Source: a virus. From it: a DNA stretch of 13,064 nt. The notes below the pieces were generated by a model. The model was given only the letters and a program-made list of their open reading frames with translations, had not been told where the DNA came from and made no database searches. Each line of letters starts with the position of its first letter. Positions within the stretch are counted from its first letter, which is position 1. Positions 1,987 to 12,361 of this stretch are shown in pieces. Where the stretch lies: UHGV virus genome UHGV-0254580; one strand, written 5' to 3'. A program made the translations under genes and the position numbers.

Positions 1987-2446
1987 TTACCACCCCACCA
2001 GCCTCTTTAAACCGGGAAATCAGGTCACTGATTTTATGTTCATACTGACCGTAACCTGCACCAGGTAACGACGCCCAGATATTGCTGCAACGATCGATAG
2101 CCTGACGGATATCACCGCGATCAATCATCGGTAAAGCGCCACGCTCTTTAATCTGTTGCAGTGCCACAGCGTCCTGGCTTTTCGGAGAGAAGTCTTTCAG
2201 GCCAAGCTGCTTACGATAGGCATCCCACCAACGGGAAAGAAGCTGGTAGCGTCCGGCGGCTGTTGATTTGAGTTTGGGGTTTAGCGTGACAAGTTTGCGA
2301 GGGTGATCGGAGTAATCAGTGAATAGCTCTCCGCCTACAATGACGTCATAACCATGATTTCTGGTTTTCTGCCGTCCGTTATCAGTTCCCTCTGACCACG
2401 CCAGCATATCAAGGAACGCCTTACGTTGATTATTGATTTCCACCAT
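1970..2446 (-). CDS. R: Endolysin R (lambda-type lytic transglycosylase)
   Basis: 158-aa protein [53 protein letters not shown]... matches recalled lambda R along most of its length; the last ~25 residues diverge. Confidence 0.9.
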
Positions 2447-2753
2447 CTTCTACTCCGGCTTTTTTAGCAGCGAAGCGTTTGATAAGCGAACCAATCGAGT
2501 CAGTACCGATGTAGCCGATGAACACGCTCGTTATATAAGCGAGATTGCTACTTAGTCCGGCGAAGTCGAGAAGGTCACGAATGAACCAGGCGATAATGGC
2601 GCACATCGTTGCGTCGATTACTGTTTTTGTAAACGCACCGCCATTATATCTGCCGCGAAGGTACGCCATTGCAAACGCAAGGATTGCCCCGATGCCTTGT
2701 TCCTTTGCCGCGAGAATGGCGGCTAACAGGTCATGTTTTTCTGGCATCTTCAT
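2430..2753 (-). CDS. S: Holin S (lambda S107/S105-type, class I holin)
   Basis: 107-aa protein [39 protein letters not shown]... with Met1-Lys2-Met3 dual start and three hydrophobic segments; overlaps the R start as in lambda. Confidence 0.9.
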
Positions 2754-2871
2754 GTCTTACCCCCAATAAGGGGATTTGCTCTATTTAATTAGGAATAAGG
2801 TCGATTACTGATAGAACAAATCCAGGCTACTGTGTTTAGTAATCAGATTTGTTCGTGACCGATATGCACGG

Positions 2872-2908
2872 GCAAAACGGCAGGAGGTTGTTAGCGCGAC
2901 CTCCTGTC
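2872..2908 (-). terminator. Candidate intrinsic terminator / stable hairpin in the late leader upstream of S
   Basis: Perfect 8-bp stem CAGGAGGT/ACCTCCTG (extendable to about 10 bp) with a 10-nt loop; on the minus strand it is followed by CCGTTTTGCCC. Lies between the tRNAs and the S start. Confidence 0.4.
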
Positions 2909-2994
2909 ACCCGCTTTCACGAGGTCATGTGTAGAAGGCCGCAGCGTAACTATCACTGATGAATTCAGGATAGCCAGTGGCTACGGCTCAGTTA

Positions 2995-3070
2995 TGGTGC
3001 TGGTTAACGGACTTGAACCGCTACCCATTCGCTTACAAGGCGACTGCTCTACCATTGGAGCTAAACCAGC
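2995..3070 (-). tRNA. tRNA-Thr (anticodon UGU), phage-encoded, with encoded CCA
   Basis: Manual cloverleaf on the minus strand: acceptor GCTGGTT/AACCAGC (7 bp), D-arm GCTC-CAATGGTA-GAGC, anticodon stem GTCGC/GCGAA with loop CTTGTAA (U33, anticodon TGT, A37), T-arm AGCGG-TTCAAGT-CCGTT, discriminator A, CCA. 76 nt. Confidence 0.6.
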
Positions 3071-3075
3071 ATGTT

Positions 3076-3150
3076 TGGCGGGACAGCGTGGACTCGAACC
3101 ACGATAAGAAGGTTAACAGCCTTCCGTAATGACCTTTATACGACTGACCC
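3076..3150 (-). tRNA. tRNA-Asn (anticodon GUU), phage-encoded, with encoded CCA
   Basis: Manual cloverleaf on the minus strand: acceptor GGGTCAG/CTGTCCC (one U-U mismatch), anticodon stem GAAGG/CCTTC (perfect) with loop CTGTTAA (anticodon GTT), T-arm CGTGG-TTCGAGT-CCACG (perfect), discriminator G, CCA. D-stem is only 3 bp. 75 nt. Confidence 0.5.
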
Positions 3151-3213
3151 AAATAAAAAAAGCCACCGTTGCAACTTAAGAGTCACTAACGGCAGCTTAC
3201 CTTCTAATTATGG

Positions 3214-3732
3214 CTAAATGGCTAATTGCATGTCAAGGCTTTTAACAGCAACATGCTTAACTTTCTCAACACGTTTACGCATTTTGAAAGCATTTTGCAT
3301 TGGTTGGTACAAAACAAATAACGACGCTTTCAGGATGTCGTCAATTTCGTTTCTACAGGTTGCCAGTGAAGGTTTTCTCCATCCCTCGCCACCACGTCCA
3401 CACATCTTGCGTGGCTTTGCAGTCGCGTGATAGTAGGATGCAATTGCTCGCTTAGATGAACCATGAGCGTAGTAGCTGAGGAGGATGCCAAAGGCTTTTT
3501 TGTCAATGCACATGACGGAATCGACGACCTGAGAAATCAACATTCCATCATCATCATTACACATTGGCCTTGTCATAATTCTTCCCGGCTCTACGCTCTC
3601 CATGAACTTAGCTATTACGCTGCTCATGCGCTTTTCCAGACGACCTGAATAAACCCATGCACCCCACAGTTCAAGCCAGCCATTCAGCCACTCGTGCTGT
3701 TCTTTGGTGAGGTTTAGTTCTCTTATGCTCAT
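3214..3732 (-). CDS. Putative late-gene antiterminator (Q-position protein; not lambda Q)
   Basis: 172-aa ORF directly after ninH (start overlaps the ninH stop) and upstream of the late leader, tRNAs and S, i.e. the Q position. Sequence does not resemble recalled lambda Q; the assignment is positional. Confidence 0.45.
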   Translation of the reverse strand: MSIRELNLTKEQHEWLNGWLELWGAWVYSGRLEKRMSSVIAKFMESVEPGRIMTRPMCNDDDGMLISQVVDSVMCIDKKAFGILLSYYAHGSSKRAIASYYHATAKPRKMCGRGGEGWRKPSLATCRNEIDDILKASLFVLYQPMQNAFKMRKRVEKVKHVAVKSLDMQLAI

Positions 3733-4563: not shown

Positions 4564-4832
4564 TATGGTTCACTCCAGTAATTCTCAATTGCAGCAGCCA
4601 TTCTCTGCATCCACTCTGCCAGCTTTAACGCGGCTTCTCTTTCAGAACCACATTTAGGGAAATCCTTCATTTCCATGCTGGCCTTATATGTTCTGAATGC
4701 CAGGTCTCCGGTAATAACCAGCTCCTGATCAAGCACAGAGCGTTTATTCCGGTGCTGAACGTAATAGACAGATTCAGTCCGCATTTCTTCTCTGTCTTTT
4801 TTGAAGGAAATAAGCTCAGAGAAATCACTCAT
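4563..4832 (-). CDS. Hypothetical nin-region protein (89 aa)
   Basis: ORF translationally coupled to neighbours on both sides (start overlaps the upstream zinc-ribbon ORF stop, stop overlaps the ybcO start); no motif I can assign. Confidence 0.5.
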   Translation of the reverse strand: MSDFSELISFKKDREEMRTESVYYVQHRNKRSVLDQELVITGDLAFRTYKASMEMKDFPKCGSEREAALKLAEWMQRMAAAIENYWSEP

Positions 4833-11806: not shown

Positions 11807-12361
11807 TTACTTAGATATTGGCCTTGGCTTTATCTCAATATTATATGGATCATAGCTGGCAACTAATTCAGTCCAGTAAATATCCTCAATAGGGAATAAT
11901 ATATGCTTCCCGTTCCATCGGGAAAAAGTTTTGTTCAACACACCAAGCTCAATCAACTCACTAATGTATGGGAATTGTTTTGATGTAACCACATACTTCC
12001 TGCCTTCATTAAGGGCTGCGCACAAAACCATAGATTGCTCTTCTGTAAGGTTTTGAATTACTGATCGCACTTTATCGTTTTGCATCTTAATGCGTTTTCT
12101 TAGCTTAAATCGCTTATATCTGGCGCTGGCAATAGCTGATAATCGATGCACATTAATTGCTAGCGAAAATGCAAGAGCAAAGACGAAAACATGCCACACA
12201 TGAGGAATACCGATTCTCTCATTAACATATTCAGGCCAGTTATCTGGGCTTAAAAGCAGAAGTCCAACCCAGATAACGATCATATACATGGTTCTCTCCA
12301 GAGGTTCATTACTGAACACTCGTCCGAGAATAACGAGTGGATCCATTTCTATACTCATCAA
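11807..12361 (-). CDS. sieB: Superinfection exclusion protein B (SieB), lambda-type
   Basis: 184-aa membrane protein abutting the N stop on the opposite strand; length, position and polarity match recalled lambda sieB; hydrophobic N-terminal segments. Confidence 0.8.
   Translation of the reverse strand: MMSIEMDPLVILGRVFSNEPLERTMYMIVIWVGLLLLSPDNWPEYVNERIGIPHVWHVFVFALAFSLAINVHRLSAIASARYKRFKLRKRIKMQNDKVRSVIQNLTEEQSMVLCAALNEGRKYVVTSKQFPYISELIELGVLNKTFSRWNGKHILFPIEDIYWTELVASYDPYNIEIKPRPISK

Follow-up and report, generated by a model that had tools for sequence, protein, structure and literature searches.

Why does a lambdoid phage carry two tRNA genes between its late antiterminator gene and its lysis genes? 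We addressed this question in the virus genome UHGV-0254580, of which a stretch of 13,064 nucleotides was analysed (hereafter the window). The window is a mosaic lambdoid prophage or phage; its best matches, mEp043 and a prophage of E. coli PA45B, cover 58-67% of it. The feature is ordinary and had been recognised correctly in an earlier reading of the DNA (the sequence-only reading); its interest comes from recent work on an identical threonine tRNA.

Two tRNA genes directly behind the late terminator

The sequence-only reading had folded two phage tRNAs by hand, Thr-UGU and Asn-GUU. ARAGORN returned exactly these genes, with the same coordinates and anticodons (tgt and gtt) on the minus strand (Table 1), as the only two tRNA genes in the 13-kb window. 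Rfam agreed: RF00005 matches Thr with 61.5 bits (E 1.4e-11) and Asn with 55.3 bits (E 6.9e-10), each over model positions 1-71 of 71. Because these scores far exceed the gathering score of 29 and the matches are full length, chance is excluded for both. The structural details of that reading could likewise be read in both sequences, which fold into cloverleafs with canonical T-arms (GGTTCAAGTCC in Thr, GGTTCGAGTCC in Asn), a GTTCRA T-loop, a 7-nt anticodon loop (CUGUUAA in Asn, CUUGUAA in Thr) with U33 and the purine A37, and an encoded CCA.

E. coli threonyl-tRNA synthetase recognises its tRNAs by the identity elements G1-C72, C2-G71, G35 and U36, and asparaginyl-tRNA synthetase by G34, U35, U36 and the discriminator G73. 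The Thr sequence carries every element of the first set and the Asn sequence (ending ...CUGUCCC-G-CCA) every element of the second, and by these elements each tRNA is predicted to be a substrate of the corresponding enzyme. Both genes are bacterial elongator tRNAs encoded by a phage.

The transcribed order on the minus strand is Asn, spacer (3075-3071), Thr, and therefore the tRNA that had earlier been called the second, Asn, lies nearer to the promoter. Spacer length is 5 nt in nearly all phage 21-type copies and 6 nt in one. Together the genes form a compact cassette of 156 bp directly 3' of the late terminator tR', with the 5' end of tRNA-Asn at the base next after the tR' U-tract.

Table 1. 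Features of the late region, all on the minus strand of the window
Feature	Position	Evidence or detail
Holin/antiholin S, lambda family, first lysis gene of the late operon	2430..2753 (-)	phrog_126, E 1e-40
Rest of late leader	2754..2994 (-)	strong hairpins ~2987-2938 and ~2917-2874
tRNA-Thr(UGU), 76 nt, encoded CCA; the published tRNA-Thr21	2995..3070 (-)	ARAGORN, Rfam, phage 21 identity
Intergenic spacer AACAT, 5 nt	3071..3075 (-)	sequence
tRNA-Asn(GUU), 75 nt, encoded CCA, discriminator G73	3076..3150 (-)	ARAGORN, Rfam, phage 21/Sf6/BTP1 identity
Short late leader RNA	3151..3200 (-)	tR' hairpin 3198-3160, U-tract to 3151
Late promoter PR'	3207..3236 (-)	promoter scan, 11/12 matches
Late antiterminator gene, Q21 type, 172 aa	3214..3732 (-)	phrog_943 'anti-termination protein Q-like', E 8e-93

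The profile matches of the flanking genes (Table 1) bear out the placement on the late-transcribed strand between the gene at the Q position and the holin gene. By tblastn, the window Q is 97-99% identical to Q of CUS-3, ST64T, L, HK75 and Sf6-like phages and 81% identical to Q of phage 21; for the holin, RefSeq gives the name 'phage holin, lambda family' in E. coli prophages that are 99% identical. PR' consists of a -35 TTGACA (3236-3231), an 18-nt spacer and a -10 CATAAT (3212-3207), and in an alignment with phage 21 (OL657228) it falls on the PR', QBE and -10 annotated there. Two TTAGCCA repeats in its spacer/-10 region (3225-3219 and 3217-3211) occupy the position of the phage 21 Q-binding element and, by that position, form a putative Q-binding element; they differ from the phage 21 repeats (ATTGAGCA/AATGAGCA) in step with the divergence of Q. 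The late transcript start is placed by homology at ~3200, and the short leader with tR' folds at -21.5 kcal/mol (z = -4.7, with 0/200 shuffles equally stable). From the tR' hairpin onward this short leader is base for base that of phage 21, for which a TSS, pause element and terminator are annotated at L134 856-905 and an 'aRNA' at 4652-4701 of AJ237660; the Sf6 record annotates tR' as well. The layout thus matches the experimentally mapped late region of phage 21. In BTP1, the transcriptome paper names the two tRNAs separately from the five genes that it reports as highly expressed in lysogens, and has the late operon begin immediately behind them (PMC7067206).

Downstream of the tRNAs, the rest of the leader folds at -49.3 kcal/mol (z = -4.4), and its hairpin at ~2917-2874, followed by CCGUUUUGCC, looks like a candidate weak intrinsic terminator in the folding model. 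We rejected the downstream hairpins as part of the cassette: the tRNA-free HK75 shares 2997-2400 at 98%, and the tRNA-free leader of P22 matches 2922-2701 at 73%.

Conservation and distribution of the cassette

The tRNA pair is already known. A 166-bp stretch over both genes is 100% identical to phage 21, Sf6 and BTP1 (AJ237660, OL657228, AF547987, NC_042346), and the genes are annotated at the Q-holin position in Sf6 (AF547987), in the complete phage 21 genome and in BTP1, in keeping with the earlier statement that lambdoid phages carry tRNA genes there. The pair of HK446 is 99.4% identical to that of the window. Several records, among them that of HK446 and the older entry for phage 21, leave the tRNA genes unannotated, and therefore at least one recent paper credits HK446 with a single tRNA when there are two.

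Are both genes intact? The sequence-only reading had noticed in Asn a 3-bp D-stem and a U-U acceptor mismatch, and had suggested that this tRNA could be degenerate. The irregularities are real (U13·U22 and U4·U69 in the Rfam NC line and the family alignment), but the suggestion does not hold. Among the family members compared (12 unique Asn variants, and 16 unique Thr variants across 52 loci), Asn is the better conserved of the pair, with 43/55 copies identical. U13·U22, which leaves the 3-bp D-stem, is invariant, and U4·U69 (4-68 in the family-alignment numbering) is never repaired, becoming U·C in three variants, while the neighbouring Asn pairs 6-66, 7-65 and 28-42 (same numbering) have changed on both sides. 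Both-sided changes also occur in the Thr stems, at 3-70, 5-68, 6-67 and 51-63, and a G27·A43 mismatch that shortens the Thr anticodon stem to 4 bp is invariant in all 16 variants and 52 loci. Degeneracy, judged from these alignments, is not supported for either gene. The earlier reading was silent on G27·A43, the functionally important feature.

The cassette occurs in podoviruses (Sf6, BTP1) and siphoviruses (21, HK446, Oslo), beside lambda-type, P22-type and pinholin lysis cassettes. A strict linkage to the Q21-type antiterminator was rejected, as the cassette is joined to a lambda-type Q in HK446 and is missing from HK75, which has a Q21-type gene. In the HK75 slot the tRNAs are replaced by an element of 201 bp that includes a T-arm; as a tRNA it was rejected (no ARAGORN call at default settings, mutually inconsistent calls under relaxed ones, and a T-arm only in Rfam), and we treat it as a tRNA-like remnant. 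Roughly one in four complete E. coli genomes (1492/5426) matches the Q-tRNA-holin region, not all of these matches necessarily including the tRNAs. Adjacency of Asn followed by Thr gave at least 120 matches in phages, with 89 isolated pairs among the matches listed, and the reverse order gave 100, of which 32 were isolated; the comparison patterns Asn-Arg(UCU) and Thr-Arg(UCU) gave at least 120 and 62. Set against such null tRNA pairs, these adjacency counts support no claim of a special enrichment of the Asn+Thr dyad in phages.

Several explanations other than nuclease evasion have to be measured against this pattern. If one or both genes were decaying pseudo-tRNAs, functionless relics riding with the Q module, the two U·U mismatches in Asn and the G·A mismatch in Thr would be unsurprising, as would two partial losses: in the ST64T/L/PS3 lineage Asn is intact and Thr is altered and uncalled by ARAGORN, and in Stx2c phages that have a Q21-type gene, Asn is cut down to roughly its first 24 nt. 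However, the Rfam scores of both genes are about double the gathering threshold, phages with Qs that share just 81% have tRNA pairs that are 100% identical, seven stem pairs are kept by compensatory double changes, and the mismatches are conserved, not drifting; the Thr sequence decodes ACA experimentally, which already refutes decay for this gene, and we consider the idea extremely improbable. Hardly more credible is that the tRNAs make up for damage that prophage integration does to a host tRNA gene. This was raised for HK446 in a 2026 preprint (bioRxiv 10.64898/2026.07.10.737580), and many temperate phages do integrate into tRNA genes, yet among the carriers examined none has a UGU or GUU tRNA gene as its known target, the same cassette accompanies different integration modules, and in Sf6 ~18 kb separate its place in the late leader from the integration site. 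Phage L, which has a related variant cassette, uses the P22 site in thrW (CGU) and rebuilds an intact gene (phage L paper). The tRNAs could also serve mainly as RNA-processing punctuation, with RNase P/RNase E cuts freeing the Q-loading leader and setting the 5' end or stability of the lysis mRNA, and decoding as a by-product. They do stand exactly between tR' and the lysis genes, in a slot that other tRNA-like elements use (the HK75 element, a four-tRNA array in Klebsiella phages). But P22 and lambda have no tRNA in the equivalent leader, the strict conservation of anticodon loops and identity elements goes beyond the needs of processing alone, and decoding by Thr has been demonstrated; we judge this very unlikely.

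The sequence-only reading had proposed that the isotypes may reflect codon usage, and the strong form of this proposal is that codon supplementation is the main selected function, the demand of the late genes for ACA and AAC/AAU exceeding the host pool. We compared the annotated coding sequences of Sf6, P22, the window and E. coli. ACA stands at 17.3 per 1000 codons in Sf6 late genes, 1.7-fold the 10.0 of 19 ordinary E. coli genes, with 12.9 in the late genes of tRNA-free P22 and 2.9 in genes for ribosomal proteins and elongation factors; E. coli reads ACA with thrU alone; and in the coat gene of phage L, AAC makes up 24/25 Asn codons (phage L paper). Against this, Asn codons rise only 1.14-fold (48.5 in Sf6 late genes, 42.4 in E. 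coli), with an AAT fraction equal to that of the host, and the most enriched codons, AGA (5.2x), AGG (4.0x) and ATA (2.7x), have no tRNA in the cassette, ACA ranking fifth. Host tRNA-Asn is not rare, E. coli K-12 having four asn tRNA genes. Moreover, because the virion and lysis genes of the carriers are unrelated, the cassette, which moves among them, is not matched to a particular gene set, and host tRNA-ThrU in excess hardly protects against the P2 nuclease Old where the phage version does. The proposal thus finds weak support for Thr and none for Asn; as the main explanation it was rejected, and we regard it as unlikely.

Nuclease evasion as the preferred reading

What, then, would the tRNAs protect against? 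P2 Old cuts host tRNA-ThrU, the sole reader of ACA in E. coli, after the C of paired CNG motifs (PMC12445682). The window Thr is identical in sequence to phage 21 tRNA-Thr21, which was 'also protected against P2-OLD' (PMC12445682, NAR 2025): it is active in ACA decoding in vivo, rescues cells from P2 Old, and is described with C28U/G42A and a shortened anticodon stem; without ATP it is left uncut, its cleavage is reduced at 150 mM K+, and its site 1 is nearly fully resistant (PMC12445682). All the hallmarks of an Old-resistant Thr tRNA are found in the window, namely UGU, loss of the paired CNG motifs (C28U/G42A) and the shortened stem. The stem, GUCGC/GCGAA, has the G27·A43 mismatch, a U28-A42 pair and 4/5 pairs overall, and positions 28-30 (UCG) and 40-42 (CGA) hold no CNG motif. 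Over-expression of host tRNA-ThrU gives little or no protection against Old, unlike the phage version (PMC12445682), and therefore sequence, not dose, decides in this setting. Published experiments on the identical sequence show that Thr functions as a nuclease-resistant stand-in.

The protection has limits. Rescue from Old by Thr tRNAs is partial, and colonies remain small (PMC12445682). With the Thr(UGU) tRNA of HK446, the Old-sensitive phages HK97, HK542 and Bas34 plate near wild type, but lambda is unrescued and the toxicity of Old in recB-deficient cells is unrelieved (bioRxiv 10.64898/2026.07.10.737580). HK446 also encodes Oad2, a protein inhibitor of Old, so that the natural share of the tRNA is uncertain, and the authors of the preprint suggest another role for it (bioRxiv 10.64898/2026.07.10.737580). 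A link to HepS, the Gifsy-1 anticodon nuclease, was considered and rejected: HepS mainly cuts the Thr(GGU) loop and senses siphovirus tail tips, and because the phage Thr loop equals the host loop no such link is evident.

Host tRNA-Asn is cut by P2 Old (PMC12445682) and by PARIS AriB (PMC11464382, PMC12409363); it is not among the tRNAs depleted more than 2-fold in the Old tRNA-seq of 2026 (bioRxiv 10.64898/2026.07.10.737580). The window Asn reads AAG at 28-30 and CUU at 40-42, as against CGG and CCG in host asnT, and has no CNG on either strand; Klebsiella-type Asn variants with C28-G42 recreate CAG/CUG motifs. Its anticodon stem, GAAGG/CCUUC, has all five pairs from 27-43 to 31-39 in standard form and so is not shortened, and the Old resistance of Thr needed motif loss and stem shortening together (PMC12445682). 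Asn carries C39 and so lacks U36-A-A-U39, where host asnT reads UAAUCC. At positions 36-41 the two phage tRNAs read UAAGCG (Thr) and UAACCU (Asn), as against UAAUCA and UAAUCC in the host, which breaks the AriB motif U36-A-A-U39-C40-A41 (cut between C40 and A41); evasion of AriB involves substitutions at 39 and/or 41, and distal determinants also exist (PMC12409363). The main target of AriB is tRNA-Lys(UUU), and T4 and T7, which have no Lys tRNA, were rescued only by T5 tRNA-Lys (AriB study). The cassette, with two tRNAs in the whole window, has no tRNA-Lys(UUU) and thus would be unable to neutralise the tested PARIS alone. Our literature search found no tests of tRNA-Asn21 aminoacylation or of its cleavage by Old or AriB, tRNA-Asn appearing as a host substrate only. 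A role of Asn like that of Thr is, from these sequence features, plausible but unproven.

We put at roughly 85% the probability that these are two functional elongator tRNAs behind tR', Thr being a nuclease-resistant stand-in for thrU and Asn most likely the same for tRNA-Asn. As the layout suggests, constitutive PR' would start late transcription ~50 nt upstream of the tRNAs, and most transcripts would end at tR'; in the presence of Q, and probably also through a low-level leak of the terminator, polymerase would pass tR', and host tRNA-processing enzymes would cut both tRNAs from the 5' end of the late lysis/virion mRNA. Infected cells die when the Toprim nucleases P2 Old or PARIS AriB cut the anticodon stem of thrU. 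The phage Thr then replaces this only ACA-reading tRNA of the host; because its stem is shortened by G27·A43 and has no C-N-G cut motifs, it survives and ACA stays readable, as the experiments with Old on the identical sequence show. Asn would most likely be a spare for host tRNA-Asn, a slower substrate of Old and AriB, and a modest ACA-decoding supply for ACA-rich phage genes would be a compatible secondary benefit.

Two further points weigh against nuclease evasion: tRNAs behind tR' may come late when Old responds to early events (e.g. RecBCD inhibition), and the Thr tRNA of P1/P7 retains both CNG motifs. For the defence role, delivery of the tRNAs from the site behind tR' would have to be early enough.

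A bolder version of nuclease evasion, possible and offered tentatively, would have the whole cassette act, as a minimal module of two tRNAs, in counter-defence against ATPase-Toprim nucleases (P2 Old, PARIS AriB and their relatives). Asn, free of both CNG motifs and of UAAU, would then back up host tRNA-Asn as a spare that resists cleavage, the conserved mismatches U4·U69 and U13·U22 might be distal evasion determinants, and with a leaky tR' behind a constitutive promoter, lysogens and freshly infected cells would be pre-loaded with both spares before Q appears. If this is true, addition of Asn should turn the partial rescue by Thr alone into a fuller one. The 55-year-old puzzle of P2-lambda interference has become easier to understand through the identical Thr tRNA, because this tRNA survives Old, the destroyer of the host's only ACA reader; Asn, its constant companion, may be a second nuclease-proof spare.

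Comparison with known systems

Late-leader tRNAs are also carried by the Stx phage 933W, whose ileZ-argN-argO genes lie on the late transcript between Q and the toxin and lysis genes, 3' of Q, PR' and tR'. The Stx phage tRNAs are Ile and Arg isotypes that read the rare codons AUA, AGA and AGG, and codon supply is a far better fit for these than for Asn and Thr. In the Klebsiella phage ST101-KPC2phi6.1, homologous Asn (90%) and Thr (85%) genes stand in the same order within an array expanded by Phe and Arg(UCU), Asn-Phe-Thr-Arg(UCU). This array follows an antiterminator gene and precedes a holin gene, as in the window, although both of those genes differ from the window's, and its Asn has the C28-G42 pair that recreates the CNG motifs.

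The temperate coliphages P1 and P7 carry a tandem with the same two anticodons in the same order and a 2-5 nt spacer; their Thr genes are 80-83% identical to that of the window and their Asn genes ~59%. In P7 the tRNAs follow the C1-controlled operator Op(ban), annotated as controlling them, whereas in the window a Q-dependent terminator stands in front. P7 Thr still has both CNG motifs and its stem is full, P7 Asn keeps UAAUCA, and both look nuclease-sensitive by the published rules.

T5 neutralises PARIS AriB with tRNAs Lys(UUU), Thr(UGU) and Asn(GUU) (PMC11464382, PMC12409363), the last two sharing their anticodons with the window pair. In T5 and in the window alike, Thr and Asn both carry substitutions near the AriB cut site, at positions 39 and 41, and are without CNG, which by analogy suggests the same principle of cleavage-resistant replacement tRNAs for the window pair against AriB. 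The sequences are unrelated, however, and T5 is a virulent phage with an array of ~24 tRNAs and promoters of their own, whereas the window pair comes without Lys(UUU); the T5 Asn stem is weakened to 3/5 pairs, and that of the window has 5/5.

The closest system is the late leader of phage 21 and Sf6, the source of tRNA-Thr21 (PMC12445682), which has the same cassette, 100% identical over 166 bp, at the same position behind tR'. Only the surroundings differ from phage 21: the window Q is 81% identical, other repeats occupy the position of the Q-binding element, and a lambda-type holin stands where phage 21 has the pinholin S21.

Two tRNA genes in the late leader

ARAGORN, run over the whole window, returns exactly two tRNA genes, and both match the Rfam tRNA model at full length, far exceeding its gathering score of 29. 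The sequence-only reading had proposed phage-encoded Thr-UGU and Asn-GUU tRNAs on the late strand between the Q-position gene and the holin; the predicted coordinates and anticodons agree with it, and the flanking ORFs bear out the placement. The T-loops that it quoted are in the sequence, U33, a purine at 37 (A37) and an encoded CCA occur in both genes, and the oddities reported for tRNA-Asn are confirmed: its acceptor stem is mismatched at U4·U69, and a U13·U22 mismatch reduces its D-stem to 3 bp. That reading had missed two features, a G27·A43 mismatch that shortens the anticodon stem of tRNA-Thr, and the order on the transcribed strand, where tRNA-Asn comes first and a 5-nt spacer separates it from tRNA-Thr. 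In E. coli, threonyl synthetase recognizes G1-C72, C2-G71, G35 and U36 as identity elements, and asparaginyl synthetase G34, U35, U36 and G73; each gene carries the full set of its own synthetase.

Features of the window on and around the late leader
Feature	Position	Strand	Evidence or remark
tRNA-Thr, anticodon tgt	2995-3070	minus	ARAGORN; Rfam tRNA model, 61.5 bits, E 1.4e-11
tRNA-Asn, anticodon gtt	3076-3150	minus	ARAGORN; Rfam tRNA model, 55.3 bits, E 6.9e-10
Q-like antiterminator ORF, upstream of the tRNAs	3732-3214	minus	ORF annotation search
Lambda-family holin ORF, downstream of the tRNAs	2753-2430	minus	ORF annotation search
Near-consensus promoter TTGACA-18-CATAAT, between Q and the tRNAs	3236-3207	minus	Promoter scan
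Very stable hairpin and U-tract (tR'), between Q and the tRNAs	3198-3151	minus	z = -4.7
Two TTAGCCA repeats, in PR' spacer and -10	3211-3225	minus	
Two very stable hairpins, between tRNA-Thr and holin	2874-2987	minus	z = -4.4
SieB superinfection-exclusion gene, adjoining the N-like gene	11807-12361	minus	phrog_6399, E 2e-114
HNH endonuclease ORF, downstream of the lysis genes	156-506	minus	phrog_144; usual site of terminase-associated HNH genes

The holin is followed by an endolysin and then a spanin; the remainder of the window has the usual genes of a lambdoid early region (RusA, NinB, primase/helicase, O, cII, cro, cI, N-like, SieB). Alignment to the experimentally annotated late region of phage 21 places the transcription start at ~3200. 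From the terminator hairpin onward the window equals phage 21 base for base, and its Q is only 81% identical to that of phage 21. The TTAGCCA repeats stand at the position of the phage 21 Q-binding element (ATTGAGCA/AATGAGCA) and are probably the binding site of the window's diverged Q, a difference in repeats that fits with the divergence between the two proteins.

Because the first base of tRNA-Asn directly follows the U-tract of the late terminator tR', the tRNAs should be reached only by polymerase that passes tR'. In an older phage 21 record (AJ237660; 4652-4701 of our extracted locus L002), which leaves the tRNAs unannotated, the terminated leader 'aRNA' ends exactly one base before tRNA-Asn (4702 onward), so RNase P cleavage of a read-through transcript would leave a leader whose 3' end almost coincides with that of the terminated one. 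Beyond the gene identity, layout and structural constraint demonstrated here, we envisage that transcription from PR' runs through tR', in part Q-dependently and in part by leak, that host processing enzymes excise the tRNAs from the late transcript, and that the cassette may benefit the phage in its natural context, with tRNA-Asn possibly acting alongside tRNA-Thr. In the BTP1 transcriptome, the tRNA pair is kept apart from five genes highly expressed in lysogens, and the late operon begins right after the two tRNA genes (PMC7067206); this grouping is compatible with leak through tR', and is confounded by the high spontaneous induction of BTP1.

Of the two hairpins downstream of tRNA-Thr, the second (CAGGAGGU...ACCUCCUG, then CCGUUUUGCC) is 73% conserved in the tRNA-free leader of P22; it looks like a weak terminator, and might stop leak-through transcripts ahead of the lysis genes. 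We considered this structured leader as a part of the cassette and rejected it: it is common to tRNA-free HK75 and partly to P22, and therefore belongs to the lysis-gene leader.

Constraint on both genes

We compared phage 21-type copies drawn from viral contigs and a Klebsiella phage, 55 of Asn (12 variants) and 52 of Thr (16 variants). Two-sided compensatory stem changes occur in both genes, at pairs 6-66, 7-65 and 28-42 of Asn and at 3-70, 5-68, 6-67 and 51-63 of Thr. The mismatches G27·A43 (Thr) and U13·U22 (Asn) are invariant across this set; U4·U69 (Asn) never becomes a standard pair and is U·C in three variants. The suspicion that tRNA-Asn might be degenerate is unsupported, since Asn is the better conserved of the pair and remains intact in the ST64T/L/PS3 lineage, in which the altered second gene receives no ARAGORN call.

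The altered gene is seen in Salfasec13b (1586-1657 of locus L004), PS3, ST64T, phage L and ST160. Next to an unchanged Asn, its anticodon arm has been rewritten (CCUAAGA loop) and its variable region is shortened; in the phage L paper, tRNAscan gives Leu-UAA for it. Two IMG/VR loci (2529292904_000011, L019 about 1165-1340; 2529292889_000004, L065) have an intact Asn and a chimeric Thr, with a phage 21-type 5' half, a 3' half like that of the host gene thrU and an altered downstream flank, which ARAGORN miscalls as Gly(tcc). The chimera suggests recombination of the phage Thr gene with a thrU-like gene.

Nuclease evasion and codon supply

For the Thr half, experiments published in 2025-2026 established the function. 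Killing by P2 Old, which is the effector in classic P2-lambda interference, comes from two cuts in the anticodon stem of host tRNA-ThrU(UGU) that fall after the C in paired CNG motifs; slower substrates are Lys(UUU), Asn(GUU) and Val(UAC) (PMC12445682, NAR 2025). The UGU tRNA of phage 21, tRNA-Thr21, 'also protected against P2-OLD': it is uncut without ATP and poorly cut at physiological K+, with site 1 almost fully resistant, and its anticodon stem is shorter and carries C28U/G42A (PMC12445682). The window Thr has the sequence of tRNA-Thr21, with exactly those stem features; that it decodes ACA, resists Old and rescues cells has thus been shown by others on an identical sequence. A 2026 preprint adds that the Thr(UGU) tRNA of HK446, described there as its single tRNA, restores plating of Old-sensitive HK97, HK542 and Bas34, that a Thr tRNA alone rescued neither lambda nor recB-deficient cells, and that HK446 also encodes a protein inhibitor, Oad2 (bioRxiv 10.64898/2026.07.10.737580). 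PARIS AriB cleaves between positions 40 and 41, beside a U36-A-A-U39 motif; its substrates are Lys(UUU), Thr(UGU) and, less efficiently, Asn(GUU) (PMC12409363). Full rescue from AriB requires all three T5 counterparts.

Whether the Asn partner evades nucleases as well is a separate matter; in the literature on P2 Old, PARIS and carrier phages we found no published test of the phage 21 Asn tRNA. With a position numbering that correctly gives U36AAACC41 for T5 Lys (PMC12409363), host asnT has CNG on both strands of its anticodon stem (27-31/39-43 GCGGA/UCCGU; 5/5 pairs) and UAAUCC at 36-41. The window Asn has CNG on neither strand (GAAGG/CCUUC; 5/5 pairs) and UAACCU at 36-41, and T5 Asn, which helps against PARIS, likewise lacks CNG (GCAUC/GUUGA; 3/5 pairs) and has UAAGUU. 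However, the stem of the window Asn is unshortened, whereas Thr needed motif loss and stem shortening together; Asn is outside the tRNAs depleted >2-fold by Old in the 2026 preprint data; CNG motifs are recreated in Klebsiella-type variants; and the cassette is without a Lys tRNA. We regard a real anti-nuclease role for Asn as rather unlikely.

The alternative that the isotypes reflect codon usage is weakly supported for Thr and unsupported for Asn. Per 1000 codons of annotated CDS, Sf6 late genes have 17.3 ACA and 48.5 Asn codons, versus 10.0 and 42.4 in 19 ordinary E. coli genes, 2.9 and 34.3 in E. coli ribosomal and EF genes, and 12.9 and 52.9 in the late genes of P22, which has no tRNAs. 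AAT makes up 0.48 of the Asn codons both in Sf6 late genes and in ordinary E. coli genes. Over-use by the phage is strongest for AGA, AGG and ATA, none served by the cassette, and the cassette travels among phages whose late genes are unrelated. For Thr, codon supply adds a secondary benefit at most. Overall, the observation is confirmed and its interpretation supported.

The cassette in known phages

The Asn-Thr feature is already known and annotated. The 166 bp over both genes are 100% identical in phage 21 (two records), Sf6, BTP1 and several Salmonella phages, and about 40 phage records match them at 98% identity or more. Of 5426 complete E. coli genomes, 1492 contain a match to the Q-tRNA-holin region, though some of these matches may leave out the tRNAs. 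The Sf6 record AF547987 labels PR', qut, tR', 'tRNA-Asn ... similar to phage 21' and 'tRNA-Thr ... similar to phage 21', the complete phage 21 genome record annotates both tRNAs, and the phage L and BTP1 papers mention them.

Stx2/Stx2c phages 1717, Stx2a_WGPS6 and phi313/99 (database matches H119-H122), several with a Q21-type gene, match only ~the first 24 nt of tRNA-Asn and 5 nt of the tR' tail (window 3155-3127), which points to a mosaic recombination junction inside the tRNA gene.

The Q of HK75 is 97% identical, and HK75 matches window 3800-3150 and 2997-2400, but an unrelated 201 bp take the place of the 152 bp with the tRNAs. This element (HM173637, L132 1784-1984; slot at window 3149-2998) has a strong fold and a tRNA-like T-arm at its end (GCCGGTTCGATTCCGGC); no convincing tRNA was called in it. 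It recurs in about 112 phage records, annotated 'tRNA-Ser', 'polyubiquitin-A' or blank. HK75 is reported to be Old-sensitive.

HK446 has a lambda-type Q and PR', yet the same cassette, downstream leader and holin, matching window 3160 onward at 98.8%. It carries both tRNA-Asn and tRNA-Thr (NC_019714, L133 906-1061; cf. window 2995-3150), a pair 99.4% identical to that of the window and unannotated in the GenBank and RefSeq records. Phage 21 differs from the window in its holin. In Klebsiella phage ST101-KPC2phi6.1 (L003 1501-1820), homologous Asn and Thr genes lie inside an Asn-Phe-Thr-Arg(UCU) array between a different antiterminator and a different holin; its Asn retains U4·U69, and three stem pairs covary. 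By sequence comparison, the unit common to these three contexts and the window is just the two genes, 3150-2995. P7 (L005 1425-1578) and P1-type loci (e.g. L026) likewise have Asn(GUU) followed by Thr(UGU), here downstream of Op(ban), an operator under C1 control. Their Thr shares about 80-83% identity with the window Thr, but their Asn only about 59% with the window Asn, and the 5' strand of its anticodon stem, GUUGA, is that of E. coli tRNA-Lys.
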